DNA of 64,000 bases, from NCBI GenBank assembly GCA_937920105.1, contig CALETH010000131.1, positions 6,400 to 70,399 on the forward strand, written 5' to 3'. Of the stretch, positions 7,003 through 47,111 are shown piece after piece. The first letter of the stretch is position 1. Each line of letters begins with the position of its first letter. The position numbers were made by a program, and so were the translations under genes. The notes beneath the pieces were generated by a model. It was not told the DNA's origin. It saw only the letters and a list, made by a program, of their open reading frames with translations, and did not search any database. This stretch comes from an uncultured Bacteroidota bacterium. Lineage in GTDB: Bacteria > Bacteroidota > Ignavibacteria > UBA10030 > UBA8401.

Positions 7003-7035
7003 AGATTTGTCAAGTTTTAAAAACTTGACAAATCT
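7003..7035. repeat. Palindromic repeat, AGAC/AGAT-stem-TTTAAAA-stem family (variant A)
   Basis: agatttgtcaagttttaaaaacttgacaaatct; the upstream hairpin aaccctgccag...ctggcagggtt (6918-6962) shares its 5' arm with the copy at 18858. Confidence 0.8.
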
Positions 7036-16403: not shown

Positions 16404-16781
16404 ATGCTTACCGATTTTGGTAGAATACTTATTTTTTTTATTGTAGGAATAATTTTCACGGCTGGTGGACTTATTACTTCGTGGTTGTTACGACCTAAAC
16501 GTCCATATCCGGCAAAACTTTCTTCGTACGAATGCGGTGAAGAAGCAACCGGAGATTCTCGAATTCAATTCAATATTCGTTTTTATATTATTGCATTAAT
16601 TTTTGTAGTGTTTGAAGTAGAAGTGGTACTGTTATTTCCGTGGGCATTAGTGTTTAAAGAGTTTGGAATGTTTGCTTTTATTGAAATGCTTATTTTTCTT
16701 TTCATTCTCATAGTTGGTTATATGTACGTGTGGAAGAAAAAAGATTTGGAATGGGATGTACCGCAACCCAAAAATTGGTAA
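16404..16781 (+). CDS. nuoA: NADH-quinone oxidoreductase subunit A
   Basis: 125 aa, 3 TM, ND3/NuoA signature (SYECGEE...FDIRFY). Confidence 0.93.
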   Translation: MLTDFGRILIFFIVGIIFTAGGLITSWLLRPKRPYPAKLSSYECGEEATGDSRIQFNIRFYIIALIFVVFEVEVVLLFPWALVFKEFGMFAFIEMLIFLFILIVGYMYVWKKKDLEWDVPQPKNW

Positions 16782-16824
16782 CAAATTAATTCATTTATCT
16801 TAATAAACAATTAAAGAGACACAA

Positions 16825-18849
16825 ATGAAAAACAAATTTTTCATATATTATATAATTGCATTATTAATAATGCCAATAACCAGTCCCGCTCAATGGGCAA
16901 AAAATATAGGTGGTAATGCTAGTGATAGAGGTAGTAGTATTGCTAATGATGGTAATGGAAATGTGTATATAACAGGGTCTTTTCGTGGGACAGCAGATTT
17001 TGATACAGGTCCAGGAACGACAAACTTGATTGGGAAAGGTTGGACTGACATATATTTTGCAAAATACGATGTTTCCGGTTTATTATTGTGGGCAAAAAGT
17101 GTTGGGAGTACTAATTCTGATGGAGGTAATAGTATTGCTGTCGATGGTAGTGGAGATGTGTATGTAACAGGTTCCTTTGAAGGAATGGCAGATTTTGACC
17201 CTGGAGTAGGAACAACAAATTTGCCTTGGGTTGGTGGTGACGATATCTTTTTTGCAAAATACAAATCTAGTGACGGTTCGCTTATTTGGGCAAAAAGTAT
17301 TGGTGCTGCTAATGGTGCTTCCGAGGGTGGTAATAGTATTGCCATAGATGGAAGTGGAAATGTCTACATAACAGGTATATTTTATGGAACAGTAGATTTT
17401 GACCCAGGGCCAGGAACAACAAATTTAACAAGTGCTGGATATGATATATTTTTTGCGAAATATAGTGGGAATGATGGTTCACTTATATGGGCAAAAAGTG
17501 TTGGTGGTACTACTGATAATGATAAAGGTAATAGTGTTGCTATAGATGGTAGTGGAAATGTCTATATAACAGGACATTTTTTTGGCACAGTAGATTTTGA
17601 CCCAGGTTCAGGAACTGCAAATTTAACGAGTGTTGGTAATTATGATATCTTTTTCGCGAAATATAGTGGTAATGACGGTTCGCTTATATGGGCAAAAAGT
17701 ATTGGTGGTGCTAGTATTGATTATTGTAGCGATATTGTTGTAGATGGTAGTGCAAATGTATATTTAACTGGATATTTTGATTATACAGCAGATTTTGACC
17801 CCAGTGCTGGAGTCGCAAATTTGACAAGTGTTGGTTATGACATTTTTTTTGCCAAATATAACTCTACGGGTTCGCTTTTATGGGTAAAAGGTATAGGGGG
17901 TGGTGGTACTGATGGTAGCGCTAGTATAGATATAGATGGAAGTGGAAATGTGTATGTAACAGGTTCTTTTCAAGGAGCGGTAGATTTTGACCCTGGAGTA
18001 GGAACGACAAGTTTAACTAGTGTTGGTGGTTCCGATATCTTTTTTGCGAAATATAATTCTACTGGTTCATTTGTGTGGGAAAAAAAAATTGGAAGTGGCG
18101 GTGACGATTTTGGTACTAGTCTTGCCTTAGATGGCAGTGGAAATGCCTATACAACAGGATATTTTAATGGAACAGCCGATTTTGACCCATCAACCAATGC
18201 AGCCGATACATTAAAATTAACCAGCAGTGATGATGATATCTTTTTTGCAAAATATAGAACTATTGATGGTCTTCTTCCCGTAGAACTTACCTCATTTACA
18301 GCAACATCAAAAAATAGTGCTGTAGAGTTATCATGGAGTACAGTGAGTGAAATAAATAATTTTGGATTTGAAATTGAGAAAGCAGAAATCCATAATCAAT
18401 CATCAGAAAAACAGTGGAAAAAAATTAGTTTTGTACAGGGAAACGGAACAAGCAATATCCAACACCATTACACATTTATTGATAAAAATGTTACTACAGG
18501 AAAATTTATATATCGATTAAAACAAATTGATATGGATGGAAAGTTTACGTACAGCGAAGAAATAGAAGGAAATGCAGAAATTCCAAAAGAGATAACATTA
18601 TCCCAAAATTATCCAAACCCCTTTAATCCTGTAACAACAATTAATTATGAAATCCCACAAACCGGAAAAGTGTATTTAAAAGTGTACAATGTGTTAGGAG
18701 AAGAAGTCGCAACACTGGTGAATGGAATGCAGGAAGCGGGAAGATATTCTACACAATTTGACGCATCGAAATATTCTTCTGGAATATATTTTTATAAACT
18801 CACATCGAATAATTATATATTAGTAAAATCAATGGTATTGGTGAAATAA
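16825..18849 (+). CDS. Secreted SBBP-repeat beta-propeller protein with T9SS C-terminal sorting domain
   Basis: Signal peptide; about 10 repeats of GNSIAxDGSGNVYxTGxFxGTxDFDPGxGTTNLTSxGxxDIFFAKY (SBBP-like); C-terminal Por_Secre_tail-like domain (NYPNPFNP...GIYFYKL). Confidence 0.8.
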   Translation: MKNKFFIYYIIALLIMPITSPAQWAKNIGGNASDRGSSIANDGNGNVYITGSFRGTADFDTGPGTTNLIGKGWTDIYFAKYDVSGLLLWAKSVGSTNSDGGNSIAVDGSGDVYVTGSFEGMADFDPGVGTTNLPWVGGDDIFFAKYKSSDGSLIWAKSIGAANGASEGGNSIAIDGSGNVYITGIFYGTVDFDPGPGTTNLTSAGYDIFFAKYSGNDGSLIWAKSVGGTTDNDKGNSVAIDGSGNVYITGHFFGTVDFDPGSGTANLTSVGNYDIFFAKYSGNDGSLIWAKSIGGASIDYCSDIVVDGSANVYLTGYFDYTADFDPSAGVANLTSVGYDIFFAKYNSTGSLLWVKGIGGGGTDGSASIDIDGSGNVYVTGSFQGAVDFDPGVGTTSLTSVGGSDIFFAKYNSTGSFVWEKKIGSGGDDFGTSLALDGSGNAYTTGYFNGTADFDPSTNAADTLKLTSSDDDIFFAKYRTIDGLLPVELTSFTATSKNSAVELSWSTVSEINNFGFEIEKAEIHNQSSEKQWKKISFVQGNGTSNIQHHYTFIDKNVTTGKFIYRLKQIDMDGKFTYSEEIEGNAEIPKEITLSQNYPNPFNPVTTINYEIPQTGKVYLKVYNVLGEEVATLVNGMQEAGRYSTQFDASKYSSGIYFYKLTSNNYILVKSMVLVK

Positions 18850-18873
18850 ATTCATAAACCCTGCCATAGTTAG

Positions 18874-18905
18874 AGACCTGTCAAGTTTAAAAACTTGACA
18901 AGTCT
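18874..18905. repeat. Palindromic repeat AGAC-stem-TTTAAAA-stem-GTCT (variant A)
   Basis: agacctgtcaagtttaaaaacttgacaagtct, preceded by aaccctgccatag (half of the 6918 hairpin). Confidence 0.8.
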
Positions 18906-18916
18906 AATAAAAAATC

Positions 18917-19411
18917 ATGGGACTTCTTGATAAACAAATTAACAGCAGCAATATCGTCATCACATCGTTAGATAATTTGATGAATTGGGCAAGACTTTCT
19001 TCTCTTTGGCAAATGCAATTTGGATTAGCATGTTGTGCAATAGAAATGATGGGAGCAGCAGCATCAAATTATGATATTATGCGTTTCGGAGTTATTCCGC
19101 GAGCAACCCCACGTCAATGTGATGTGATGATTGTTTCCGGAACGGTAACCTTAAAAATGGCATCACGTGTGAAACGTTTGTATGACCAAATGTCTGAACC
19201 ACGTTATGTTATTTCTATGGGAAGTTGTTCTAATTGCGGAGGTCCATATTGGGAACACGGTTATCATGTGTTGAAAGGAGTGGATAGAGTAATTCCTGTA
19301 GATGTGTACGTTCCCGGATGTCCGCCAAGACCAGAAGCATTGTTGGAAGGTGTCATTAAATTACAAGAAAAAATTCGCAGTGAAGGTGTTGGAAAGAAGA
19401 AAGTAGCGTAA
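18917..19411 (+). CDS. nuoB: NADH-quinone oxidoreductase subunit B
   Basis: 164 aa, Fe-S cluster N2 cysteines ([20 protein letters not shown]). Confidence 0.95.
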
Positions 19412-19442
19412 TTTTTTTTATTGATAATAAAAAGGTATTATT

Positions 19443-19649
19443 ATGAAATTTACTATCACAATCAATCGTGATGAAGATGGGATGTATATTGCAGAATGTC
19501 CATCTATTCCAGGTTGCTTTAGTCAAGGAAAAACCGAAGAAGAAGCACAAAAAAATATTCAAGAGGCAATCAAAGAATGTTTAGATGTGCGAGCAGAAAA
19601 AGGAATGCCCTTAACTATTTCCACTCGCCAAGTTGAGGTTGCTATTTAA
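19443..19649 (+). CDS. hicB: HicB-family antitoxin (short, UPF0150-like)
   Basis: 68 aa, DGMYIAECPSIPGCFSQGKTEEEAQKNIQEAI matches the HicB N-terminal fold; TAATG junction with hicA. Confidence 0.7.
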   Translation: MKFTITINRDEDGMYIAECPSIPGCFSQGKTEEEAQKNIQEAIKECLDVRAEKGMPLTISTRQVEVAI

Positions 19650-19879
19650 TGCCCCAAGTGCCACTTCTTCGTCCAAAAGATATTATTAAAGTTTTTGAAA
19701 AACTTGGCTGGGAAGTTGTACGTCAACGAGGAAGTCATATCATTCTTACCAAAGAAGGGAGTATTTCAACATTGTCAGTTCCTAATCATTCTGAAGTTGC
19801 TCGTGGTACATTAAGAGGTCTTATTCAAAAAGCAGGAATAACAATAGAACACTTTATCGAAGTTTTACAAACGTTATGA
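19649..19879 (+). CDS. hicA: HicA-family mRNA interferase toxin
   Basis: 76 aa, ...VRQRGSHIILTKEG... matches the HicA motif; its stop overlaps the nuoC start (ATGA). Confidence 0.75.
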   Translation: MPQVPLLRPKDIIKVFEKLGWEVVRQRGSHIILTKEGSISTLSVPNHSEVARGTLRGLIQKAGITIEHFIEVLQTL

Positions 19880-20352
19880 TTACTCCACAAGAAGTATTTG
19901 ATATACTACAATCCAAGTTTGGTGAGAAAATTTTGGAGTTACAACTTCAAACACATAATCCATTTATAAAAATTTCATCAGATGGATTATTAGAAATTGC
20001 ACAATTTCTTCGAGATGATGAACGATTTCAATTTGATTATCTTTCTTGCCTTTCAGGGATGGATTATGAAAAAACGCTTGGAGTTGTGTATCATCTTTTT
20101 TCTATGAAAAAAAAACATAAGATTGTTATCAAGGTTGAAGTGTCAAAAGAAAATCCGATAATTCCATCCGTAGAAAAAATTTGGAAAACCGCAAACTGGC
20201 ACGAACGCGAAGCATACGATTTATTTGGAATTATTTTTTCTGAACATCCGGATTTACGACGGATTCTTTTACCGTATGATTGGGAAGGACATCCACTACG
20301 AAAAGATTATCAAGTTCCGGAATATTATAATGGAATGAAAGTTCCGTATTAA
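19876..20352 (+). CDS. nuoC: NADH-quinone oxidoreductase subunit C
   Basis: 158 aa, 30 kDa subunit signature (EREAYDLFGIIFSEHPDLRRIL). Confidence 0.93.
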   Translation: MITPQEVFDILQSKFGEKILELQLQTHNPFIKISSDGLLEIAQFLRDDERFQFDYLSCLSGMDYEKTLGVVYHLFSMKKKHKIVIKVEVSKENPIIPSVEKIWKTANWHEREAYDLFGIIFSEHPDLRRILLPYDWEGHPLRKDYQVPEYYNGMKVPY

Positions 20353-20361
20353 AAATATTTT

Positions 20362-20628
20362 ATGAAATATCTCCTATGGTTTTTTGTCGCTATTAATGCA
20401 GCAATCGGAATTAAATACCTTTTGAGTTCTTTTGGTGTATTCAAAATGCGATATTATCCATTTATTACAGAATTTATTTTTGCTGTTGTACTGCTTGGTA
20501 CGGCTGCGGTGGCATTATATATTTATCATTATAAAGAAATCATGTGGTTATCATTTCTTATTGTTTGTTCACCACTTATGCTTTTGTGTATAGTAGTATT
20601 TTTTTCAATGGTAACAGGTAAATATTAA
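20362..20628 (+). CDS. Small hypothetical membrane protein (3 TM)
   Basis: 88 aa hydrophobic ORF wedged between nuoC and nuoD. Confidence 0.45.
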   Translation: MKYLLWFFVAINAAIGIKYLLSSFGVFKMRYYPFITEFIFAVVLLGTAAVALYIYHYKEIMWLSFLIVCSPLMLLCIVVFFSMVTGKY

Positions 20629-20674
20629 CTTATAAACTATATTTTTATCAACTAATTATACAGGGAGTTATAAT

Positions 20675-21196
20675 ATGAAAAGCATGTTCTTCGTCATCGC
20701 AATTATTTTTTTCACACTTCCAATCTATGCACAAGTACAAGTAGAGGAAGGTCAGGAAGATGAATGCTATCAAGAAATTATTCAAGATATGAACAAAGAA
20801 ATAGCAGAAGCACCAACGAACGCAGAGTTGTATATCACACGTGGCAATGCGAAATATTATTTAGATGATTTTCGTGGAGCAATGTCTGACTACAAACAAG
20901 CATTAGAAAATAATGAAAGTTCTGCAGAAGCATATTGCCGGCTTGGAATGGTGAAGTTGCAATTTCTCAATCAATTTGAAGAATCGCTTGCAGATTTTGA
21001 AAAATCCATTGAGTTAAATGAAAAATATGCTCTTGCGTATTATGGTAGAGGTTTAGCAAAAATTGCCAAACAAGAAGATGATAAAGAAGGCGGTTGTGCA
21101 GATTTAAGCAAAGCCGGAGAATTAGGAGAAATCAAAGCATATCAAGCATTAAAAAATTTGTGTAAAAGTTCTAAAGATGTAGCAAAAGAAGAATAA
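20675..21196 (+). CDS. Secreted TPR-repeat protein
   Basis: Signal peptide MKSMFFVIAIIFFTLPIYAQ, then TPR-like helical repeats. Confidence 0.6.
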   Translation: MKSMFFVIAIIFFTLPIYAQVQVEEGQEDECYQEIIQDMNKEIAEAPTNAELYITRGNAKYYLDDFRGAMSDYKQALENNESSAEAYCRLGMVKLQFLNQFEESLADFEKSIELNEKYALAYYGRGLAKIAKQEDDKEGGCADLSKAGELGEIKAYQALKNLCKSSKDVAKEE

Positions 21197-21211
21197 ATTT
21201 TACATATCTGC

Positions 21212-22366
21212 ATGTCTAAAGGAGCGCATCTACATAACATTGCAACAAAAAATCTTCGTACCGAGGAAATGGTTCTCAATATGGGACCGCAACATCCATC
21301 AACGCATGGGGTGCTGCGGCTTGAACTTCTTGTTGATGGAGAAATTGTTGTTGATGTCATTCCCCACATAGGTTACCTTCATCGCTGTTTTGAAAAACAC
21401 GCCGAACAAATGCTCAACTATCAACAAATCATTCCGTATGTTGATAGGATGGATTATGTTGCTTCCATGACGAATGAGTTTGCATTTGTTACCGCCGCAG
21501 AAAAACTTTTCAATATTCAAGTTCCCGAACGAGTAGAATACATTCGCGTAATTATGGCGGAGTTGCAACGCATCGCCAGTCATCTTATTGCTGTTGGAAC
21601 CTACGGAATTGATATTGGAGCGTTCACACCATTTTTATATTGTTTCCGTGACCGCGAAAAAATTTTAGATTTATTTGAGATGACCTCCGGTGCACGGCTT
21701 CTTTACAATTATATGTGCATTGGCGGATTGTATCATGATTTGCCAAATGGATTTATTGAAAAAGCAAAAGAATTTTGTCAATACTTTAGAAAACAATTAA
21801 AAGATTTTAATGATTTATTGACATACAATGAAATTTTTATAAACCGAACAGCAAATGTGGGAATCCTTCCTGTAGATGTTGGTATTAATTATGCATGCAG
21901 TGGTCCAATGTTGCGGGGTTCCGGTGTAGATTGGGATTTGCGCCGTGATGACCCATATTCAATTTATCATAAATTGGAATGGGAAGTTTGTGTTGCAAAA
22001 GGGGAAGTGGGAAAGATTGGTGATTGTTGGAATAGACATTTTGTGCGTGTGCGAGAAATGGAGCAAAGCATTCTTATAATAGAGCAAGCGTTGGCACAAC
22101 TTCCGGAAGGAGATGTGAAATCCGCAATTCCTAAAAGAATACGACCGTTGCCTGCAGAAATTTACGTACGCACAGAAGCACCACGTGGAGAATTGGGATT
22201 TTATATTGTGAGTGATAATTCTACATCACCGTACCGTGTGAAAGCACGTTCATCTGCATTTGTGAACTTGAGTGTGATTGCAGAAATTGCTCGTGGTGCA
22301 ATGCTTGCCGATATGGTTGCCATTATCGGAAGTATTGATATTGTGTTGGGTGAAGTGGATAGATGA
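21212..22366 (+). CDS. nuoD: NADH-quinone oxidoreductase subunit D
   Basis: 384 aa, 49 kDa subunit ([16 protein letters not shown]). Confidence 0.96.
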
Positions 22367-22439
22367 TGTTTAATGGAAAGTTGCAAATGAGGAATTGATA
22401 ATATAAAAAATAATATACTTTTAAATAAGTGAGGTATTT

Positions 22440-22691
22440 ATGATAACAGCAAAAGAAGCCACACAAGCAGCAATAAAATATTTCCAAGAAGTTTTTAATG
22501 GCCGTTATGATAATTTAGCAGTAGAAGAAATCGAATTATCTTCTGATGAAAAATTTTGGTCTATTACACTTGGTTATAATATGATGTCAACAATGACAAT
22601 GCTTGTACCTACATCGCAACGAACATATAAAGAATTTAAAGTTTCTGCTGAAAGTGGTAAAGTTACTGCGATGAAAATCCATAATGTTTAA
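22440..22691 (+). CDS. Small hypothetical protein, possibly PepSY-like
   Basis: 83 aa; weak resemblance to the PepSY fold pattern (LAVEEIEL...FKVSAESGKVTAMKI). Confidence 0.35.
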   Translation: MITAKEATQAAIKYFQEVFNGRYDNLAVEEIELSSDEKFWSITLGYNMMSTMTMLVPTSQRTYKEFKVSAESGKVTAMKIHNV

Positions 22692-22696
22692 TATAT

Positions 22697-23207
22697 ATGG
22701 CGGATTATTATATTGAATTGTTAAAAAAATATTATTCTAAAGGTATACTTATAGATACAAATTTACTTTTGATATTTATTATTGGAATGTGTGATAAAAA
22801 TTATATCGCAACATTTAAGCGAACAAAGACATTTTCGTCTGAAGATTATGATATTCTTTTTCATATACTTCAACCATTTTGTAAAATCATAACAACACCA
22901 AATATTCTTACAGAAGTTAGTAATCATCTCGGATTTTTAGAGGAGTCTTTGAAACAGAAAGTTTTGAAAACTTATTTCTAATAATATTAATTCTTATTTT
23001 GCGGAAAGTTATCATAAAAGCAATTTTCTTTCTTCAAAAGATTTTTTTCATAAATTTGGACTTACGGATTCCAGCATTATTGAAGAAGCAAAAAATAAGT
23101 ATTTAGTTCTTACGGAAGATTTAAAATTAACCAATTATCTCCAATACCAAAAAATAGATGTCATGAATTTTCATCATTTGCAAACAATAAATTGGTATTC
23201 AACATAA
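22697..23207 (+). pseudogene. PIN-domain (VapC-like) nuclease gene disrupted by a +1 frameshift near 22968-22981
   Basis: Track ORF 22697..22981 encodes the PIN N-terminal motif (GILIDTNLLL). The C-terminal half (…FAESYHKSNFLSSKDFFHKFGLTDSSIIEEAKNKYLVLTEDLKLTNY…, stop about 23207) continues in a different frame with no start codon. Confidence 0.65.
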
Positions 23208-23242
23208 TATAAACCCATTTCACTCACTTAAATTTATCTATT

Positions 23243-24373
23243 ATGGAAAACTCATACACAGAAACAACATCAAAATCTTGGGGAAATAGAATAATGGAAT
23301 CTCTCAAAGGGATTCTTTTCGGACTTCTTCTTGTTGCACTTGCATTTATCGTTTTATGGTGGAACGAAGGACGTGCCGTAAAAACTGCAAAAAGTTTAGA
23401 AGAAGGTGCATCCAGCGTTGTAACAATTTCTTCATCTGCTGTTGCAAAAGAAAACGAGCAAAAACTTGTTCATCTTACCGGAATGGCAACAACAAATGAA
23501 ATATTAATTGATGCAGATTTTAAAATTTCTCTTCCTGCAATTAAACTTAGAAGAATTGTGGAAATGTATCAATGGAAAGAAGAAAAATCTGAAAAGAAAG
23601 AAAAGAAAATGGGCGGCTCGGAAGAAACGGTAACAACGTATTCTTATAAAAAAGTGTGGGATGATAATATTATTTCTTCTGAAAATTTTAAACAAAAAGA
23701 AGGACATACTAATCCAACAACATTTCAATATTCTTCATCTGAAAAAATTGCACAAAATGTTCAAGTTGGTGGCTTTACACTTTCACCATCACTCATTCAA
23801 AAAATAAATAAATACGAAAAACTCAATCCGCAAACATTTGATTCTACACAAAAATCTTCGCAAGAAATTTATATTGGAAGAGGAAATATTAATTCACCGG
23901 AAATTGGAGATGTAAAAATCTCTTTTGAAGCAGTAAAGCCAATCGAAGTAAGCATTGTTGCAAAACAAGTAGGAAATTCTTTTGAACCATATAAAGCAGA
24001 AGCCGGCGGTGAAGTAGAATTACTGGAGTATGGAAATGTTCCTGCCGCAAAAATGTTTTCTGAAGCACAATCCACCAATACAACAATGACATGGATTTTC
24101 CGCATTGCTGGAATTGCAATGATGTTTTTTGGAATTATGACAATTTTTAAACCACTCGTTACCGTTGCTGATGTGTTACCATTTCTCGGAAGTATATTAA
24201 ATATGGGACTCGGAATTTTTTCTGCTGTAATTTCATTTTCATTAAGTTTTATTACCATTGCCCTTGCGTGGTTATTTTACCGTCCTGTGTTGGGAATTAT
24301 TTTATTAGTTATTGGTATTGGAATTTTTGTGGGAATAAAATTTATTTCACCGAAAAAGAAAACAGCGAAATAA
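23243..24373 (+). CDS. TMEM43-like (DUF1625-type) membrane protein
   Basis: 376 aa, N-terminal TM (LFGLLLVALAFIVLWWNEGR), large soluble domain, C-terminal cluster of TM helices; architecture resembles bacterial TMEM43 homologues. Confidence 0.5.
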   Translation: MENSYTETTSKSWGNRIMESLKGILFGLLLVALAFIVLWWNEGRAVKTAKSLEEGASSVVTISSSAVAKENEQKLVHLTGMATTNEILIDADFKISLPAIKLRRIVEMYQWKEEKSEKKEKKMGGSEETVTTYSYKKVWDDNIISSENFKQKEGHTNPTTFQYSSSEKIAQNVQVGGFTLSPSLIQKINKYEKLNPQTFDSTQKSSQEIYIGRGNINSPEIGDVKISFEAVKPIEVSIVAKQVGNSFEPYKAEAGGEVELLEYGNVPAAKMFSEAQSTNTTMTWIFRIAGIAMMFFGIMTIFKPLVTVADVLPFLGSILNMGLGIFSAVISFSLSFITIALAWLFYRPVLGIILLVIGIGIFVGIKFISPKKKTAK

Positions 24374-24380
24374 GATTTGT

Positions 24381-24405
24381 AGGGACGGTTGCAAAACCGT
24401 CCTTG
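24381..24405. repeat. Hairpin with GGTTGCAAAACC core
   Basis: agggacggttgcaaaaccgtccttg; sister copy agaatggttgcaaaaccattcca at 2664-2686. Both lie just 3' of plus-strand stop codons. Confidence 0.6.
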
Positions 24406-24416
24406 GAAATTTTTAG

Positions 24417-24523
24417 AGAAACGTTCCCTCTATTTTGAAAAAAATCCAAAAGATGGAAAATTGTGGAAGAAAATAAAAGACGAATTTCTTAAAGCAAAAA
24501 ACTATAAGAGAATAGAAAAATAG
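24417..24523 (+). other. Degenerate duplicate of the 3' end of the antitoxin gene 24614..24841
   Basis: gaaacgttccctctattttgaaaaaaatccaaaagatggaaaattgtggaagaaaataaaagacgaatttcttaaagcaaaaaactataag aligns at about 85% with 24751-24841 (…RSLYFEKNPEGGKLWEEIKDEFLKGKKL). Confidence 0.75.
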
Positions 24524-24534
24524 AAACTGAAATA

Positions 24535-24567
24535 AGATTTGTCTAGTTTCAAAAACTTGACAAATCT
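24535..24567. repeat. Palindromic repeat AGAT-stem-TTTAAAA-stem-ATCT (variant A)
   Basis: agatttgtctagtttcaaaaacttgacaaatct. Confidence 0.8.
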
Positions 24568-24613
24568 AATCATAGTAATCCTATAAATTAAGGTCAAATC
24601 AAGAGGCAAATGT

Positions 24614-24841
24614 ATGCAAACACATCTTCGTAATAAAATAAATAAATTGAGCGTTTCTGAAAAAATTTTACTCGTTGAAGAACTTTGGGATGATATTGCT
24701 CGTAAGAATGAAACTTTTGAATTATCACAAAGTCAAAAAAGTGAATTAGAGAAACGCTCACTCTATTTTGAAAAAAATCCAGAAGGTGGAAAATTGTGGG
24801 AAGAAATAAAAGACGAATTTCTTAAAGGCAAAAAATTATAA
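24614..24841 (+). CDS. Putative addiction-module antitoxin (TIGR02574-like) paired with ParE-type toxin
   Basis: 75 aa, LSVSEKILLVEELWDDI...SQSQKSELEKR...NPEGGKLWEEIKDEF matches the 'putative addiction module component' family pattern. Confidence 0.7.
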   Translation: MQTHLRNKINKLSVSEKILLVEELWDDIARKNETFELSQSQKSELEKRSLYFEKNPEGGKLWEEIKDEFLKGKKL

Positions 24842-25134
24842 TGTCTATTCGTTTTCATCCTGAATCTGAAAAAGAATTAAAAGAGTCCGTTTATTGGTAT
24901 GAATATCAACGTAAAGGTCTTGGATTTGAATTTCTTTTTTGTGTTGATGAAGCCATAGAACAAATAAAAAATCGTCCTCAAATGTATCCACTCGTTACAG
25001 AAAAAACTCGTCGTATAGTTGTTAAAAGATTTCCCTTTGCTATTTTTTACGAAACAAATAAATCCAGTATTTATATTTTGGCTATTTTTCATTTACGACG
25101 CAATCCAAAAGAATGGAAAAATAGAAAATCATAG
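24841..25134 (+). CDS. ParE/RelE-family toxin (plasmid stabilisation system protein)
   Basis: 97 aa, IRFHPESEKELKESVYWYE...FPFAIFYE...IYILAIFHLRRNPKEW; TAATG overlap with the antitoxin gene. Confidence 0.75.
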   Translation: MSIRFHPESEKELKESVYWYEYQRKGLGFEFLFCVDEAIEQIKNRPQMYPLVTEKTRRIVVKRFPFAIFYETNKSSIYILAIFHLRRNPKEWKNRKS

Positions 25135-25171
25135 TCATATCATTACAATCCTATAAATCATAGTTTAAGCC

Positions 25172-26218
25172 ATGCCCGAGTTTCTTACCAATATTTTTGG
25201 AAAAACAATAATTGTTCACATTATCATGGGAGCAGTACCGTTATTATTTATACTTCCGTACGCTCTTGTAGTTATTTATGTGGAAATGAAACTTTCTTCC
25301 CACATGCAAAACCGTGTGGGATATATGAGAACCGGTTGGCATGGAACACTGCAACCTTTTGCAGATATTTTCAAACTCTTACAAAAAGAAAATATTGTTC
25401 CAGCAGAAGCAGATAAAATTTTATTTTCATTAGCACCATTTATAGTTTTTATCGGAATGTATGCTGCGTACGCAGTGCTGCCTTTTGGAAGCGGATATGT
25501 TGGCAGCGAAATGGAAATCGGAATTTTTTATCTACTCGCAGTTTCTTCATTAGTGGTTGTAGGAATTTTGATGGCTGGCTGGTCATCCAATAATAAATGG
25601 TCATTATTAGGAGCAATGCGTTCTGTTGCACAAATTGTAAGTTACGAAATTCCGGCAGCATTAGCATTGCTTGGAGTGGTGATGCTTGCCGGAACAATGA
25701 ATACCGAAATGTTAAGTGCAATGCAATCCGGTGGAATGCACGAATGGTTTATTTTTGGCGGAACATTACCATTGTGGAAAAAATTTACAATCATTCCCTT
25801 TATGTTTATAATTTTTTTGGTGTATCTCGTTTCATCAATGGCAGAGGTAAATCGGACACCATTTGATTTGCCCGAAGCAGAATCTGAATTAGTGCAGGGT
25901 TACAATACAGAATACAGCGGAATGAAATTTGCTATTTTTTATTTAGCAGAATATGGAAATTTATTTTTAATTTCTGCTATTGCAGTAATTGTATTTTTTG
26001 GCGGATATACAAGTCCGTTTGGAAAATTTCTTTCCGGAGGTGTGTGGGATGTTTTTTGGTTTATCACCAAAGGAATGTTGTTAGTACTTATTAATATTTG
26101 GATTCGTTGGACTCTTCCTCGTTTGCGAGTTGACCAACTCATGTACGTTTCATGGAAAGTCCTTACACCATTTGCTTTGGTTGGAATTATTGTTATCGGA
26201 TTTATTTTGGTTGTGTAA
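25172..26218 (+). CDS. nuoH: NADH-quinone oxidoreductase subunit H
   Basis: 348 aa polytopic membrane protein with ND1/NuoH signature (SEMEIGIFYLLAVSSL, RTPFDLPEAESELVQGYNTEYSG). Confidence 0.96.
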   Translation: MPEFLTNIFGKTIIVHIIMGAVPLLFILPYALVVIYVEMKLSSHMQNRVGYMRTGWHGTLQPFADIFKLLQKENIVPAEADKILFSLAPFIVFIGMYAAYAVLPFGSGYVGSEMEIGIFYLLAVSSLVVVGILMAGWSSNNKWSLLGAMRSVAQIVSYEIPAALALLGVVMLAGTMNTEMLSAMQSGGMHEWFIFGGTLPLWKKFTIIPFMFIIFLVYLVSSMAEVNRTPFDLPEAESELVQGYNTEYSGMKFAIFYLAEYGNLFLISAIAVIVFFGGYTSPFGKFLSGGVWDVFWFITKGMLLVLINIWIRWTLPRLRVDQLMYVSWKVLTPFALVGIIVIGFILVV

Positions 26219-26223
26219 GTTTT

Positions 26224-26256
26224 ATATTTGTCAAGTTTTTAAAACTTGACAAATCT
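26224..26256. repeat. Palindromic repeat stem-TTTTTAAAA-stem (variant A)
   Basis: atatttgtcaagtttttaaaacttgacaaatctgtat. Confidence 0.8.
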
Positions 26257-26277
26257 GTATGATATAACTTTATAAGT

Positions 26278-26814
26278 ATGCAATACTTTATCAACATATA
26301 TAAATCACTCCGTTCAGTTATTGTTGGGTTGAAAATTACTGCGAAAAATCTTTTTAAGCCAACAGTAACGATTCAATATCCGGATGTGAAAAAAGCAATG
26401 CCGGAGCGGACAAGAAATCGTTTGTATGTCAATATGGATGATTGTATTGGCTGCGACCAATGTGCAATTGCATGTCCGGTAAACTGCATTACCATAGAAA
26501 CAATCAAATCAACACCCGAAGATAATCTTGGTGTAACATCAACAGGACACAAAAAGAAACTTCATGTTCCCGTGTTTGATATTGATATTGCGAAATGTTG
26601 TTATTGTGGATTGTGCGTTCCACCATGTCCCACAGATTGTATTGTGATGACACCGGTGTACGAATTTTCTGAATTTGATAGACAAAATTTAATTTATAAT
26701 TTCAGCACGATGACCCCTTCTGAAATTGAAACAGCAAAACTCAAAGCAAAGAAAATGGAAGAAGAAATTGCTGCGAAAAAATCAGCACAAAATTCTACAA
26801 CTGGTTCTGTATAA
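26278..26814 (+). CDS. nuoI: NADH-quinone oxidoreductase subunit I (2x[4Fe-4S] ferredoxin)
   Basis: CIGCDQCAIACP and CCYCGLCVPPCP motifs. Confidence 0.95.
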   Translation: MQYFINIYKSLRSVIVGLKITAKNLFKPTVTIQYPDVKKAMPERTRNRLYVNMDDCIGCDQCAIACPVNCITIETIKSTPEDNLGVTSTGHKKKLHVPVFDIDIAKCCYCGLCVPPCPTDCIVMTPVYEFSEFDRQNLIYNFSTMTPSEIETAKLKAKKMEEEIAAKKSAQNSTTGSV

Positions 26815-26816
26815 AC

Positions 26817-26862
26817 TCCCCTCTGTGTATTGGCAAGAGCAATGGAGAGAGGGGTGTGTCCA
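26817..26862. repeat. Repeat family P hairpin
   Basis: cccctctgtgtattggcaagagcaatggagagaggggtgtgtcc, compare 10741-10795. Translation of this element produces the spurious N-terminal extension of the nuoJ ORF in the track. Confidence 0.75.
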
Positions 26863-26907
26863 AAAAATAAGAAGAAAAAATTAAGAATTAAGAAAGATAC
26901 TATTACA

Positions 26908-27420
26908 ATGTTCCTCCAACTTTTCGACATCATCTTTTATTTTTTTGCAACAGTAACACTCATTTCTGCAGGGATTGTTGTATTCTCAAAAAATATAGTA
27001 CGCTCAGCATTCTCATTAGTCTTTACATTTTTTGGAATTGCCGGATTGTATGTATTATTGAATGCAGATTTTGTTGCTGTAGCACAACTCTTTGTGTACG
27101 TTGGCGGAATTTTAGTATTACTATTATTTGCAGTTATGTTAACACAAAAAATTTCTAATCTACAAATGAAAATAACAACACTTCATCCAATAATTGCAAT
27201 AATTCTTGTTGCATCACTTATTGGTGTATTGTGCGGAATTGTGCGGATGAATGACTGGCGAATTATTACAATTTCTGAAATACCACAATCCACAGCACAA
27301 TCAATTGGAAAGGCATTGATAACAACACATATTCTTCCATTTGAAATTATTTCCGTTATTTTACTCGTTGCAATTATCGGAGCAGCAATGCTCGCAAGAA
27401 AGAGCGAAAAAAAATCATGA
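26908..27420 (+). CDS. nuoJ: NADH-quinone oxidoreductase subunit J
   Basis: Start chosen at MFLQLFDIIFYFF (ATG 26908) because the track's first 26 codons lie inside a repeat element; 5 TM ND6/NuoJ-like. Confidence 0.85.
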   Translation: MFLQLFDIIFYFFATVTLISAGIVVFSKNIVRSAFSLVFTFFGIAGLYVLLNADFVAVAQLFVYVGGILVLLLFAVMLTQKISNLQMKITTLHPIIAIILVASLIGVLCGIVRMNDWRIITISEIPQSTAQSIGKALITTHILPFEIISVILLVAIIGAAMLARKSEKKS

Positions 27421-27722
27421 TAACACTTCATCATTTTTTATTTGTTAGTATTATTCTTTTTGGATTAGGTGTGTATGCAGTTTTAACACGTCGCAATGCA
27501 GTGATGGTATTGATGGGAATAGAACTTATTCTCAATGCAGCCAATCTCAATTTTGTTGCTTTTTCTCGTTATGGTGGATTGAAATTAGATGGACAAATGT
27601 TTGCGTTGTTTGTGATTATTCTTGCAGCAGCAGAAGCCGCTGTTGCATTAGCTATCATTCTCAATATTTATCAACGCTTCAATACTATTAATGTGGATGA
27701 TGTTGATACGTTGAAAGAGTGA
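27417..27722 (+). CDS. nuoK: NADH-quinone oxidoreductase subunit K
   Basis: 101 aa, 3 TM, ND4L/NuoK (GIELILNAANLNFVAFS). Confidence 0.95.
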   Translation: MITLHHFLFVSIILFGLGVYAVLTRRNAVMVLMGIELILNAANLNFVAFSRYGGLKLDGQMFALFVIILAAAEAAVALAIILNIYQRFNTINVDDVDTLKE

Positions 27723-27865
27723 CCCTGATTTTCAAGATTACAAGATTACGATGATGTAATTAACAAAATTTTTACTTTGCATCTTAGCGACTTTGCGAGA
27801 CAAAACAAATCCGCGAAAATCATAAAAATCTTAACAATCAGTGCTTTATCAAATAATATAATTTA

Positions 27866-29896
27866 ATGCAAAAAACACTTTTACAATTATCTTTTATTGT
27901 TTTTATTCTTCCTCTGTGCAGTTTTCTTTTTCTTATTTTTTTCGGAAAAAAACTGCGAGCGGAAATATTCGCAACTTCTGTTATTGCAGTAACATTTCTT
28001 TTAAGCATATTTATTGCAACTATAAAATTTTTATCTTTTCCTCAAGAAACATTTCATTATTCTTTTTCTTGGATAAATTTTCCCATCAAGATAGAAACCG
28101 GAATTTTACTCGATAATCCCGCAGCAATAATGCTTGTTATCGTAACATTCATCAGTTTTCTTGTACATCTTTTTTCTATAGAATATATGAAAGGAGATGT
28201 ACGTTACTCACGATATTTTTCTTATCTTGGATTTTTTACCACATCAATGCTCGGAATAATTCTCACCGATAATCTTTTTACGATGTACATGTTTTGGGAA
28301 TTGGTTGGTATTAGTTCCTATCTTCTCATCGGACATTGGTACGAAAAAACTTCTGCTGCCAACGCATCAAAAAAAGCATTTATCGTCAATCGCATTGGTG
28401 ATGTAGGAATGTTCATTGGAATTATGTTGTTGTGGAATAATTTTCACACACTCACATTTGAAGGAATTTTTTCTTCACTCAATACTATAGAAAACACATC
28501 ACTACTAACTGTTGCTGGACTTTTACTTTTTTGCGGAGCAATTGGAAAATCTGCACAATTTCCATTACAAGTGTGGTTGCCGGATGCTATGGAAGGACCA
28601 ACTCCCGTGAGTGCATTAATTCATGCAGCAACAATGGTGGCTGCAGGTGTGTATCTGGTGCTTCGCATTTTTCCGTTACTTACCATCGAAGCGTTAACCG
28701 TGATTGCGTACATCGGAGCAGTTACAGCATTTATTGCAGCAACAATTGCAGTTGTTCAAACAGACATCAAAAAAATATTGGCGTACTCTACAATAAGTCA
28801 GTTGGGATATATGATGCTTGGTTTGGGTTCACTTGGATATACAGCGGGATTTTTTCATTTAGTTACACATGCAATTTTTAAGGCGGGACTTTTTCTCGGA
28901 GCCGGTTCGGTAATTTATGCAATGCACAATTCAATACAGGCATTACATCACACAAAAAATCATGATGTTGATGCACAAAATATTTTTTTTATGGGTGGAT
29001 TGAAAAAGAAAATGCCAATTACATTTTGGACTTTTCTTATGTGCACTTTTGCACTCACGGGAATTCCATTGACTTCCGGATTTTTAAGTAAAGATGAAAT
29101 TCTTACATCAGCACTTGTCTTTGGAAACCACACCAATAATTTTCTTCTTCCGTTGTTGGCTTTCAGTACGGTGATGTTAACATCATTTTATATGTTTCGT
29201 CTTATCATTGTTGCATTTTTAGGAAATCATATTGATGAAAAAAGAATAGAACACATTCACGAATCTCCCAAAGTGATGCTCGTACCATTGATTGTATTGG
29301 CAGTGTTATCATTTTTTGTTTTCTATTCGTTCAATCCATTTTCTGTATCAAACAGTTGGTTTACAAAAATTATTACTTTACCACGTTCACTTATTTCAAC
29401 CTATCTTCCTGAACACAGAAAATTTGCAGTAACACCACATCAACAAATACACACTCTTGCAATGGTTGTTTCGTTTGGGGCAACATTATTAGGAATATTA
29501 TTTGCATTTCTTTTGTATTATTGGAAAAAGATTTCTCCACAAAAGATTGCACAAAAATCTCGTTTATTATATTCATTTTTTTCTCAACAATGGTACTTTG
29601 ATAGATTCTATAATATATTTGTGGTGAAAGGAACACTTGCATTTTCTAAAATTTTTTCTTGGTTTGATGTAAAAGTTATTGATGGATGTGTGAATGGAAC
29701 AGCAGTACTATTTCAAAAAATTTCTTTTGTGAGTGGAAAATTTGATTCCATTATTGTTGATGGAATCGTTAATTTTATTGCGTATTTTTCCGGCATGTTG
29801 GGATTAGGGTTACGAAAAATCCAAACAGGAAAAGTGCAAACTTACATTGCATTAGTAATCGTTGGAATTTTAATTTTATTTTTTGTGTATAAATGA
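27866..29896 (+). CDS. nuoL: NADH-quinone oxidoreductase subunit L
   Basis: 676 aa antiporter-like subunit (WLPDAMEGPTPVSALIHAATMV). Confidence 0.96.
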   Translation: MQKTLLQLSFIVFILPLCSFLFLIFFGKKLRAEIFATSVIAVTFLLSIFIATIKFLSFPQETFHYSFSWINFPIKIETGILLDNPAAIMLVIVTFISFLVHLFSIEYMKGDVRYSRYFSYLGFFTTSMLGIILTDNLFTMYMFWELVGISSYLLIGHWYEKTSAANASKKAFIVNRIGDVGMFIGIMLLWNNFHTLTFEGIFSSLNTIENTSLLTVAGLLLFCGAIGKSAQFPLQVWLPDAMEGPTPVSALIHAATMVAAGVYLVLRIFPLLTIEALTVIAYIGAVTAFIAATIAVVQTDIKKILAYSTISQLGYMMLGLGSLGYTAGFFHLVTHAIFKAGLFLGAGSVIYAMHNSIQALHHTKNHDVDAQNIFFMGGLKKKMPITFWTFLMCTFALTGIPLTSGFLSKDEILTSALVFGNHTNNFLLPLLAFSTVMLTSFYMFRLIIVAFLGNHIDEKRIEHIHESPKVMLVPLIVLAVLSFFVFYSFNPFSVSNSWFTKIITLPRSLISTYLPEHRKFAVTPHQQIHTLAMVVSFGATLLGILFAFLLYYWKKISPQKIAQKSRLLYSFFSQQWYFDRFYNIFVVKGTLAFSKIFSWFDVKVIDGCVNGTAVLFQKISFVSGKFDSIIVDGIVNFIAYFSGMLGLGLRKIQTGKVQTYIALVIVGILILFFVYK

Positions 29897-29952
29897 ATAT
29901 AATTTTAAAAAAATACAATTTTATATTTATAAACTATAATAAGGAATAAATT

Positions 29953-30627
29953 ATGCCATGGATGGAATTCATTAGAGAAGATTCTTACGTAAGTAAGGAT
30001 AGCCCAAATATAGCAATAACCAGCGACCGCAAATTCATGTTTAATTCTCAGTTTGTCAGATTAGCTGGCTTGAATATCAAACAACGGGTGGTAGTTCATA
30101 TTCATCCAGAGACGTATAGAATTGGATTTGAATTTGTTACAGATGATAATCAAAATTCTTTCCAATTAGGTTATCAATCTCGTGGTAGTAAATCAGGAGG
30201 ACTTAATTGTACAGCTGGAGCAGTAATTAATAGATTTGCTTGGATAAAGGCAATTTCAGAATTAAAATCTCCCCAAGCAAAACGTTTTTCTCCAAAACAA
30301 GATAGAGAAATGGGGAAATTGGTATGGGCAATACAACTTTGTCCGGCTTTTGAAATTAGCGAGTCTAGAGAAGCAAATAATATTCCAAGTGGAGCAAAAG
30401 GAATATATCGGTATAAACGTCATAGTGGAGAAATAGTTTATATAGGTAAAGGAGATATAAAGAGTAGATTAAATGAACCTCAAAGACGAGAATGGAAGTT
30501 TGATACAATTGAGTATTCAATTGTAGAAGATGTAGATGCAAGAACAAAATGGGAAGAATTTTGGATTGTTCGTTTTCAAGAAGAAAATAAACAACAACTT
30601 CCAATGTATAATAAAATTTCTGCTTAA
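29953..30627 (+). CDS. Swapped-hairpin (AbrB/MazE-like) N-terminal domain fused to a GIY-YIG nuclease domain
   Basis: 224 aa; the N-terminal IAITSDRKFMFNSQFVRLAGLNIKQRVVVHIHPETYRIGFEFV resembles AbrB/SpoVT-type DNA-binding barrels; the C-terminal GIYRYKRHSGEIVYIGKG...R...E is a GIY-YIG core. RBS aaggaa. Confidence 0.6.
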   Translation: MPWMEFIREDSYVSKDSPNIAITSDRKFMFNSQFVRLAGLNIKQRVVVHIHPETYRIGFEFVTDDNQNSFQLGYQSRGSKSGGLNCTAGAVINRFAWIKAISELKSPQAKRFSPKQDREMGKLVWAIQLCPAFEISESREANNIPSGAKGIYRYKRHSGEIVYIGKGDIKSRLNEPQRREWKFDTIEYSIVEDVDARTKWEEFWIVRFQEENKQQLPMYNKISA

Positions 30628-30663
30628 AATTATAGAATATATTTTTACATATTTGATACAATT

Positions 30664-32244
30664 ATGCAATTCACATTTCTCAATATAGGAATACTCACAT
30701 GGCTAACATTCTTACCATTGGTAGGAATGCTGTGTATCTTTTTTCTTCCACAAAAAAAATCACAACTAGCAAAATGGATAACATTAGGTTGCACAACAAT
30801 CCAATTGTTATTAGCAACAATCATTTATATAAAATTTGATAGAACATTAGCAGGAGTAAATTCTATCGAAGGAATGCAATTCAAAGAAATTTTTCCATGG
30901 ATTTCTATTAACAGTACAGAATGGTTCGGGAAAATTTCCATTCAATATTTTTTAGGAATTGATGGACTCAGTGTTCCGATGATTTTATTAACAGCAATTA
31001 TTTCTTTCATTGCCGTTCTTGCATCATGGAAAATAGAAAAATCCGTGAAAGGATATTTTTCATTATTTCTTTTATTAAACACCGGAATGTTTGGCGTTTT
31101 TGTTGCGTTAGATTTTTTCTTGTTCTTTATTTTTTGGGAATTAATGTTGTTACCAATGTATTTTCTTATTGGAGTGTGGGGTGGAGAGCGAAGAGAATAT
31201 GCAGCAGTAAAATTTTTCCTCTACACATTATTTGGTTCAGTGCTGATTTTATTAGTGATGTTGGCATTATACTTTAGTGTTACTGTTACTGATGCAATAA
31301 CTGGAGAAAAAATGCACACCTTCAATATGCTCGCAATGATGAATCCACAAAATTTTGAAAACAATTCACTCTTATTCGGACTTCACACTTATTGGAGATA
31401 CATTGCATTTATTGCACTCTTTATTGGATTTGCAATTAAATTACCGTTGTTTCCATTTCACACATGGCTGCCTGATGCACACGTGGAAGCACCAACAGCA
31501 ATCAGCGTTATTCTTGCCGGCATACTTTTAAAAATGGGTGGATATGGTTTAGTGAGAATTGCATTACCAATTTTTCCGGATGCAGCAATACACTATGTAT
31601 ATCCTATTGCCTTTTTGGGATTTATTAATATTGTGTATGGTGCATTGTGTGCAATGGCACAAAAAGATTTTAAAAAACTCATTGCCTATTCATCCGTCAG
31701 CCACATGGGAATTGTAGTGTTGGGAATTGCAGCGTTAAATACGCAAGGAATGGTTGGAGCAATGTTGCAAATGTTCAATCACGGAACAATTACCGCAATG
31801 CTCTTTGTTATTGTCGGCGTATTGTATGATAGAACACACACACGTCAGATAAGTGAGTTTGGCGGGTTGATGAATAAAATGCCAAAATATTCTGCATTAG
31901 TAGTCATTGCATTTTTTGCATCACTTGGTTTGCCGGGATTAAGCGGATTTATTTCTGAGGCCTTTTCATTTCTCGGTGCATTTCAAACTCATCAATGGTT
32001 AACTATTGCTTCCACATCTGGAATAGTATTAACCGCCGCTTATATGTTGTGGACTTTTCAACGTGTGTATTTAGGAACACTTCCGGAAAAATGGAATTCA
32101 CTACAAGATATTTCCAAACGAGAGTTATTGATGTTAGTTCCGCTAGCAATCATTATAATATTTTTAGGAATTTATCCAACACCAATGTTAGAATTAATGA
32201 ATACTTCTGTGAACGCTCTTGTTGAAATGGTAAAAGTGAAATAA
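30664..32244 (+). CDS. nuoM: NADH-quinone oxidoreductase subunit M
   Basis: 526 aa antiporter-like subunit (FPFHTWLPDAHVEAPTAISVILAGILLKMGGYG). Confidence 0.96.
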   Translation: MQFTFLNIGILTWLTFLPLVGMLCIFFLPQKKSQLAKWITLGCTTIQLLLATIIYIKFDRTLAGVNSIEGMQFKEIFPWISINSTEWFGKISIQYFLGIDGLSVPMILLTAIISFIAVLASWKIEKSVKGYFSLFLLLNTGMFGVFVALDFFLFFIFWELMLLPMYFLIGVWGGERREYAAVKFFLYTLFGSVLILLVMLALYFSVTVTDAITGEKMHTFNMLAMMNPQNFENNSLLFGLHTYWRYIAFIALFIGFAIKLPLFPFHTWLPDAHVEAPTAISVILAGILLKMGGYGLVRIALPIFPDAAIHYVYPIAFLGFINIVYGALCAMAQKDFKKLIAYSSVSHMGIVVLGIAALNTQGMVGAMLQMFNHGTITAMLFVIVGVLYDRTHTRQISEFGGLMNKMPKYSALVVIAFFASLGLPGLSGFISEAFSFLGAFQTHQWLTIASTSGIVLTAAYMLWTFQRVYLGTLPEKWNSLQDISKRELLMLVPLAIIIIFLGIYPTPMLELMNTSVNALVEMVKVK

Positions 32245-47050: not shown

Positions 47051-47070
47051 AAAAGATATAAAATTTTAAA

Positions 47071-47102
47071 TTTGTCATCCCGTAATAACAGGATGACAAA
47101 TC
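47071..47102. repeat. REP-like palindrome tgtcatcc-N-ggatgaca
   Basis: tttgtcatcccgtaataacaggatgacaaatc. Confidence 0.65.
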
Positions 47103-47111
47103 TTTATAGCA

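Follow-up and report, generated by a model that had tools for sequence, protein, structure and literature searches.

Remains of a second copy of a predicted ParE-type toxin-antitoxin module upstream of its intact twin in the nuo operon of an uncultured Ignavibacteria bacterium

An intact module and the remnant beside it

We analyzed a stretch of 64,000 nucleotides (hereafter the window, whose coordinates are used throughout) from contig CALETH010000131.1 of an uncultured bacterium assigned to the Ignavibacteria (Bacteroidota; assembly GCA_937920105.1). Between nuoD and nuoH, this window holds a toxin-antitoxin (TA) module of predicted ParE type (24614-25134) and, upstream of it, a short segment (24413-24588) that resembles parts of the same module. 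Because the end of an antitoxin gene, the end of a toxin gene, a stop codon and a 3' tail follow one another in this segment in the order in which they occur in the intact module, 24413-24588 represents a second copy of the whole module, lying head-to-tail with the intact one. This bears out a preliminary description of the locus, made from the sequence letters alone, which had spoken of the scar of a second, partially deleted copy.

The intact antitoxin gene (24614-24841, + strand) encodes 75 amino acids (aa) and matches both Pfam family PF09720 (Unstab_antitox; 50.5 bits, cut-off 23.3) and NCBIfam family TIGR02574 (50.2 bits, cut-off 31.9). The toxin gene that follows (24841-25134, + strand, 97 aa) falls into the ParE/RelE superfamily, with a ParE-like fold: its product matches PF05016 (ParE_toxin) at 31.3 bits (gathering score 23), with residues 3-88 of 97 covered, and has no match in NCBIfam. 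The antitoxin stop and the toxin start overlap in ATAATG (TAATG), which points to translational coupling of the two genes, and, going by family membership, the labile antitoxin would bind and block the ParE-like toxin. The leader of the module is short (24589-24613, + strand), and a promoter scan of its + strand found no sigma-70-like promoter; at the other end, the 3' tail of the module (25127-25158, + strand) runs up to nuoH, which starts at 25172.

An AlphaFold (AF2) model of the toxin has a predicted local distance difference test score (pLDDT) of 84.6 and the topology E-H-H-E-E-E-H, in keeping with the family fold, in which a helical hairpin at the N-terminus packs against an antiparallel sheet of three or four strands. 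When this model was compared with the PDB by Foldseek, ranks 1-21 were all taken by structures of the ParE branch (PfiT, ParE, PrpT), with TM-scores (TMq) mostly of 0.74-0.80 and of 0.63 for one chain, and structures of RelE, YoeB and HigB ranked lower (TMq 0.47-0.69). The ParE-branch matches include ParE of Pseudomonas aeruginosa and Mesorhizobium, ParE1 and ParE2 of Mycobacterium tuberculosis, ParE2 of Escherichia coli O157, ParE1 of Caulobacter, PrpT and PfiT; by sequence, M. tuberculosis ParE2 (8c26, E 0.006) is the top match among PDB entries. No relative of solved structure was found for the antitoxin. Given the Pfam match and the fold comparison, "ParE-type TA module", the label already used in the preliminary description, is a fair one for this predicted module, and the intact pair adds one more member to a TA family already known.

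A search of about 15 billion proteins returned, as the closest homologues of the toxin, proteins 57-59% identical to it from three loci (L084, L085 and L086). Immediately upstream of each of these PF05016 toxins (96-97 aa) lies a PF09720 gene (72-73 aa) whose product is 58-62% identical to the intact antitoxin, and all three modules stand in unrelated genomic contexts outside nuo. Remoter homologues of the toxin are plasmid-borne and are annotated as RelE/ParE toxin with an addiction module protein.

The upstream segment keeps, in order, the last 31 codons of the antitoxin gene, toxin codons 90-96, the final toxin codon with its stop, and a 21-nt tail. Its first part (24413-24507, + strand) corresponds to antitoxin codons 45-75 and the stop codon, and is 90.6% identical to 24746-24841 in an alignment of 96 columns whose only indel is 1 nt long; the gapless core of 89 nt is 90% identical, and at a BLAST E value of 5.8e-32 against the full 64-kb window the similarity stands above background. 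The preliminary description had seen this duplicate of the antitoxin 3' end, pairing 24417-24523 with 24751-24841 at roughly 85% identity: its left ends lie within about 5 nt of ours and the similarity is real, but the identity was set too low and 24508-24523 is not antitoxin-like, since there the translation passes, in a different frame, into the 3' end of the toxin gene. It had also been right that the translation parallels the C-terminus of the antitoxin, as a 44-aa open reading frame (ORF; 24389-24523, C-terminal end ...LYFEKNPKDGKLWKKIKDEFLKAKNYKRIEK) spans the antitoxin remnant and agrees with the antitoxin at 24 of 29 residues (82.8%, E 5.6e-12). The first 44 codons and the leader are gone, leaving the antitoxin remnant with no start codon of its own, and close to its end a 1-nt deletion shifts the frame and replaces the natural C-terminus.

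The toxin remnant (24506-24526, + strand, AAGAGAATAGAAAAATAGAAA) comprises codons 90-96, the last seven full codons before the final one. It is identical to the toxin end at 25107-25127 in 19 of 21 positions, a score that none of 2000 dinucleotide shuffles reached against the toxin region. Antitoxin and toxin remnants are joined via an AA microhomology, and the joint equals a deletion of 267 nt (89 codons), namely 24842-25108 of the intact copy. There follows, relative to the intact copy, an insertion of 42 nt (24527-24568) that carries a 33-nt palindrome and lies 7 nt ahead of the stop codon of the remnant toxin. The last part is a duplicate of the 3' tail of the module (24568-24588, + strand, AATCATAGTAATCCTATAAAT), whose counterpart is 25127-25158: it holds the final toxin codon and stop (TCA TAG, 24570-24575) and then non-coding AATCCTATAAAT. 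The two tails agree in 21 of 21 positions once 11 nt (25136-25146) are gapped, a gapped local score that was reached in 17 of 5000 shuffles, and in 17 of 20 positions when no gaps are allowed. With the two large indels removed, a composite alignment shows that the remnant agrees with the intact copy at 126 of its 134 positions. The remnant tail ends at 24588 and the intact leader begins at 24589, so that the tail-to-tail period is 570 nt and the unit 24589-25158. No third copy of the module was found in the window at either the DNA or the protein level. We consider it very likely that 24413-24588 are the eroded remains of a second antitoxin/ParE-type toxin module, arranged head-to-tail with the twin that is intact at 24614-25134.

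On its upstream side, the remnant begins exactly where the T-run of a terminator-like hairpin ends. This hairpin (24380-24405, + strand; terminator scan and RNA fold) follows a TMEM43-family gene (23243-24373), folds at -22.7 kcal/mol (z -7.1) and belongs to an extended palindrome at 24372-24413. The intact antitoxin gene contains a 19-nt inverted repeat (24640-24658 and 24750-24768, 91 nt apart) whose arms are 89% complementary; the left breakpoint of the remnant, which corresponds to 24746, falls at the start of its 3' arm and may hint at a structure-prone deletion endpoint.

Coding state of the remnant and the repeats around it

The reading frame through the remnant stays open for 44 codons, and wherever the antitoxin C-terminus is invariant among homologues the residue has been kept, with the four replacements placed at variable positions (an avoidance of invariant sites that, at about 0.12 by our own estimate, is not significant). 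On these grounds the segment could be taken for a functional element, either a truncated antitoxin peptide that buffers the toxin or a regulatory leader acting as RNA or DNA. We regard such a function as highly improbable: The ORF has no ATG, its sole start candidate, a TTG at 24389, is part of the stem of the terminator hairpin upstream, and the frameshift swaps out the natural C-terminus. The two copies are separated by nine substitutions (about 9%), with two synonymous changes and four replaced residues (K57, D58, K63 and K64 in the remnant), and all three substitutions that could be polarized, with L084, L085 and L086 as outgroups, are derived in the remnant and non-synonymous. Each of them is a G-to-A change (E63K, E64K and G58D), leaving lysine, lysine and aspartate at positions that are acidic or glycine in the outgroups, and these three replacements also speak against a function.

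That the segment might belong to a conserved regulatory leader, which the preliminary description had named as an alternative, is rejected, because the three nearest homologous modules lack such an upstream segment (no self-similar sequence was found upstream of any of them), and the segment has no Rfam match at E <=1. A read-through fusion of the remnant with the TMEM43-family gene, with which it shares its frame, was likewise considered and is ruled out by a TAA at 24371 and a TAG at 24380. The disabling lesions comprise the missing start and leader, the 267-nt toxin deletion, the 1-nt deletion and the 42-nt insertion, and the remnant is probably non-functional.

The palindrome within the scar (24535-24567, AGATTTGTCTAGTTTCAAAAACTTGACAAATCT) is the AGAT...ATCT repeat that had been noted between the duplicate and the intact module; it is present, but it is neither part of the module nor a private feature of the junction. 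It belongs, with slight degeneration, to a dispersed family of intergenic repeats with four copies in the window (7003-7035, 18876-18908, 24535-24567 and 26224-26256), where none would be expected by chance. One of the others lies upstream of nuoB (18876-18908) and another between nuoH and nuoI (26224-26256). The consensus, AGATTTGTCAAGTTTT(T/A)AAAACTTGACAAATCT, is near-perfect as a palindrome (family sequence AGATTTGTCAAGTTTTWAAAACTTGACAAATCT), and all copies are intergenic, three of the four being located 6-27 nt past a stop codon. All of them fold stably; the copy in the scar (-15.1 kcal/mol, z -4.8) is the most degenerate and interrupts the toxin remnant 7 nt ahead of the stop codon. Since the repeat recurs at three further, unrelated intergenic sites, it is not specific to the module, and the possibilities that it is an operator of the module or a private insertion scar are ruled out.

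The palindrome was absent upstream of the homologous modules L084, L085 and L086, and also from the nuo loci of our comparison set, which was anchored on NuoH (58-75% identical) and comprises 80 representative genomes (metagenome-assembled genomes labelled Ignavibacteria or Bacteroidota). Its core has a single match in the JGI metagenomes, on an unrelated contig of 46% GC (L087:54-78), which is uninformative. The palindrome is a dispersed element resembling repetitive extragenic palindromic (REP) sequences, and it may act as a REP-like element, an RNA stabilizer or a protein-binding site. Elsewhere in the window, a palindrome at 47070-47104 has the same outer arms (ATTTGTC...GACAAAT) around another inner stem (ATTTGTCATCCCGTAATAACAGGATGACAAATCTT), and the hairpin at 24372-24413 also has a AAGATTTGT outer arm; hairpins with shared outer arms and variable cores may form one family.

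A second repeat brackets the hairpin and the remnant. It is an exact direct repeat of 14 nt (GAAATAAGATTTGT), whose first copy (24367-24380, + strand) covers the point where the TMEM43-family gene stops and its hairpin starts, including the stop codon, and whose second copy (24529-24542), the only other one in the window, precedes the palindrome. This pair may mark a recombination joint.

The source contig is derived from a metagenome, and a pseudo-duplication could in principle arise if the antitoxin 3' ends of two strain variants were threaded serially during assembly. The sole independent assembly of the same population (ENA ERZ650243, about 3.2-3.5x coverage) does break around the region. 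One of its contigs (L003) is 100% identical to 18011-24243 of the window and ends at 24243, and another (L001/L002) is 99.96% identical from 24619 on, so that the 375 nt that hold the scar are without independent confirmation. The left junction also differs in that assembly: The first 301 nt of contig L001 (L001:1-301) are unrelated to the window and stand directly upstream of antitoxin codon 3 (junction 24619/24620), where they stand in for the TMEM43-family gene, the scar and the leader. These 301 nt are traversed by an antisense ORF and have no match in the window, no homologue in a word-index search and no Pfam family; a PD-(D/E)XK nuclease motif in them was an impression that found no support. 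They may reflect a chimera at the end of the contig, or else a genuine structural variant with an alternative left junction. Even so, we judge an assembly artefact to be very improbable, as the serial threading of k-mers would not make a 267-nt deletion fusion, a 42-nt insertion or unique flanks such as the hairpin at 24372-24413, and contig breaks beside repeats are expected at about 3x coverage even when the structure is real.

Insertions in the spacers of the nuo operon

The module sits within a respiratory nuo (complex I) operon of the nuoA-B-C-D-H-I-J-K-L-M type (11-subunit type; 16404-32244). In 76 of 79 relatives the gap between nuoD and nuoH measures 3-220 nt, and the median over the 79 is 35 nt, as compared with 2805 nt here. 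This block contains, in addition to the scar and the intact module, an 83-aa ORF, a 94-aa ORF and the TMEM43-family gene, and its GC content is 24-31% vs 35-44% in nuoD and nuoH. Since nuoD adjoins nuoH in relatives, the empty site is shown at the family level, and the module and its remnant are accessory insertions in a normally minimal spacer.

The same operon has been expanded at other places. Five of its nine junctions measure 464-2805 nt, against medians of 23-79 nt among 68-79 relatives, the further four being A-B (2135 nt), B-C (464 nt), C-D (859 nt) and L-M (767 nt). The inserts are co-oriented with the operon: a beta-propeller protein with a tail of the type IX secretion system (T9SS) is encoded between nuoA and nuoB, an 88-aa membrane ORF and a TPR protein between nuoC and nuoD, and a 224-aa ORF between nuoL and nuoM. 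The insert between nuoB and nuoC (19443-19879) is an intact-looking pair of HicB (68 aa) and HicA (76 aa), in which the HicA stop overlaps the start codon of nuoC (19876). A further two-gene module, also decayed, may lie within the nuoD-nuoH block itself at 22440-23206, where the 83-aa ORF is followed by the 94-aa ORF (22697-22981), whose reading frame apparently extends, with a +1 shift, as far as about 23206. Reading this second ORF with its continuation as a PIN toxin is unsupported, as no Pfam or NCBIfam family was matched even once the frames had been joined and its PIN-like acidic motifs were seen by eye only.

Few relatives have inserts at nuo junctions, and these are mostly other TA pairs. 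HicB or HicA genes likewise occupy the nuoB-nuoC junction in two of them (L029 and L076), in one case as a PHD-like antitoxin with HicA (L076:1329-1890). The nuoD-nuoH junction holds an MntA/HepT pair in one relative (L073:5260-5891) and a DUF4258/DUF2283 pair in another (L040:5495-5971), and a DUF2442/DUF4160 pair lies at the nuoH-nuoI junction of a third (L059:5984-6460). These pairs suggest recurrent colonization of nuo spacers in the clade. We tentatively raise the possibility, which the present data leave doubtful, that the nuo spacers of this clade serve as preferred, co-oriented landing pads for TA and other small selfish modules, with the scar as one frame of an ongoing turnover. This genome would then be the extreme case, with junctions that hold HicBA, the ParE-type pair with its remnant, and an apparently frameshifted pair of small genes. 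If such a bias exists, TA modules would exploit, or help to retain, the transcription of an essential operon, and the tandem of an intact and an eroded pair would give a direct view of gain and loss at such a site. To our mind, the invaded operon is more noteworthy than the scar itself.

History of the locus and comparison with known systems

The course of events that we favor begins with a local tandem duplication, or, less likely, with a second landing of a homologous module, that would have given two copies. The antitoxin of the intact neighbor could then neutralize both toxins, by which one copy would be freed from the constraint of addiction. The freed copy would have decayed by deletion, with toxin loss as a central step and the front of the antitoxin lost as well, and it would also have taken up the dispersed palindrome and drifted.

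A rather unlikely alternative is that of successive acquisition, in which a module of the same subfamily, resident from earlier on, was already in decay by the time a homologous one, about 10% diverged and with the same 3' tail, landed beside it or, in a variant, partly replaced it by homology-assisted recombination. The coding fragments are about 9-10% apart, which is above what a very recent duplication would lead one to expect, and the nuoD-nuoH spacer is a repeated landing site, which in this genome holds further accessory genes and in the relatives L040 and L073 TA pairs that are unrelated; the 14-nt direct repeat around the remnant also fits such a course. However, the non-coding tail is identical in both copies, the remnant tail abuts the intact leader at a 570-nt period, as tandem duplication predicts, and the polarized changes all fall on the remnant branch, which fits drift after duplication. 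The module, moreover, is accompanied by neither a mobility gene nor a recognizable end sequence. As to the origin of the second copy, duplication is thus favored by the identical tail and the clean period, and the divergence of about 10% suggests a second acquisition.

Several points weigh against a duplicated module that later eroded. The order of events, and duplication as opposed to second acquisition, are not separable on these data, and nine substitutions are too few for a meaningful dN/dS. The remnant has kept every invariant residue of the antitoxin C-terminus, and a simple history of duplication and deletion does not account for the 14-nt direct repeat. The scar is seen in one assembly only, with ERZ650243 breaking on both sides of it. 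The databases searched held no close relative (>90% protein identity), and for that reason no strain-level empty site, two-copy state or intermediate was found. The representative genomes of GTDB do not include the species, the top NuoH match among them being 75%; the antitoxin search returned only the antitoxin itself, the antitoxin, toxin and TMEM43 proteins are each the sole member of their 90% cluster, and a 24-mer common to both copies has no match in the JGI metagenomes.

Read as a duplicated and then eroded module, the scar is a clean, annotatable case of TA duplication followed by decay, of an ordinary kind, in which the intact and eroded states stand side by side with exact breakpoints. 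Annotation should treat the fragment as what is left of a pseudogene and not as a gene of 44 aa.

Among characterized systems, the intact pair is most readily compared with modules of the ParDE type, such as M. tuberculosis ParDE2 (8c26), P. aeruginosa ParDE (6xrw), E. coli O157 PaaA2-ParE2 (5cw7) and Caulobacter ParDE1 (3kxe). It shares with them a two-gene operon in which the small antitoxin comes first and stop and start overlap, a toxin that passes the PF05016 threshold, and a predicted fold closest to ParE structures. Unlike in those modules, the antitoxin is neither a ParD of the ribbon-helix-helix (RHH) type nor a PaaA2, but belongs to the uncharacterized PF09720/TIGR02574 "addiction module component" family, for which no structure has been solved, and the toxin is just 15-23% identical to solved ParEs. 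PF09720-PF05016 modules elsewhere, including L084, L085 and L086 and that on plasmid pHRM2 of Desulforapulum autotrophicum (NC_012109), have the same pair of genes in the same order and of the same sizes, but none has an upstream partial duplicate and their contexts are not nuo. The palindrome, for its part, resembles REP-like intergenic palindromes in being near-perfect over 33 nt, intergenic, stably folded and present in four copies per 64 kb, and differs from them in that its copies are single and not clustered.

The erosion itself has a close parallel in the chromosomal TA loci of Photorhabdus, where truncation of the toxin is the usual first step, toxins and antitoxins leave non-ORF DNA remnants, loss is eased by a similar system elsewhere, and TA modules cluster in small permissive spots with palindromes at their junctions (Belot et al., 2026, PMC13617665). 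The locus described here shares toxin truncation, DNA remnants, such clustering, a palindrome at a TA junction and a similar system that could have made the loss possible. In contrast to the Photorhabdus loci, the 5' two-thirds of the antitoxin are missing too, and the palindrome is genome-dispersed and not Tn3 res-like, with no transposase or resolvase nearby. The scar fits the published model in which toxin loss and neighboring cognate antitoxins let addictive modules be shed, and it differs from the eroded loci of Photorhabdus in that the eroded copy stands in tandem with its intact twin, presenting both states in one genome.

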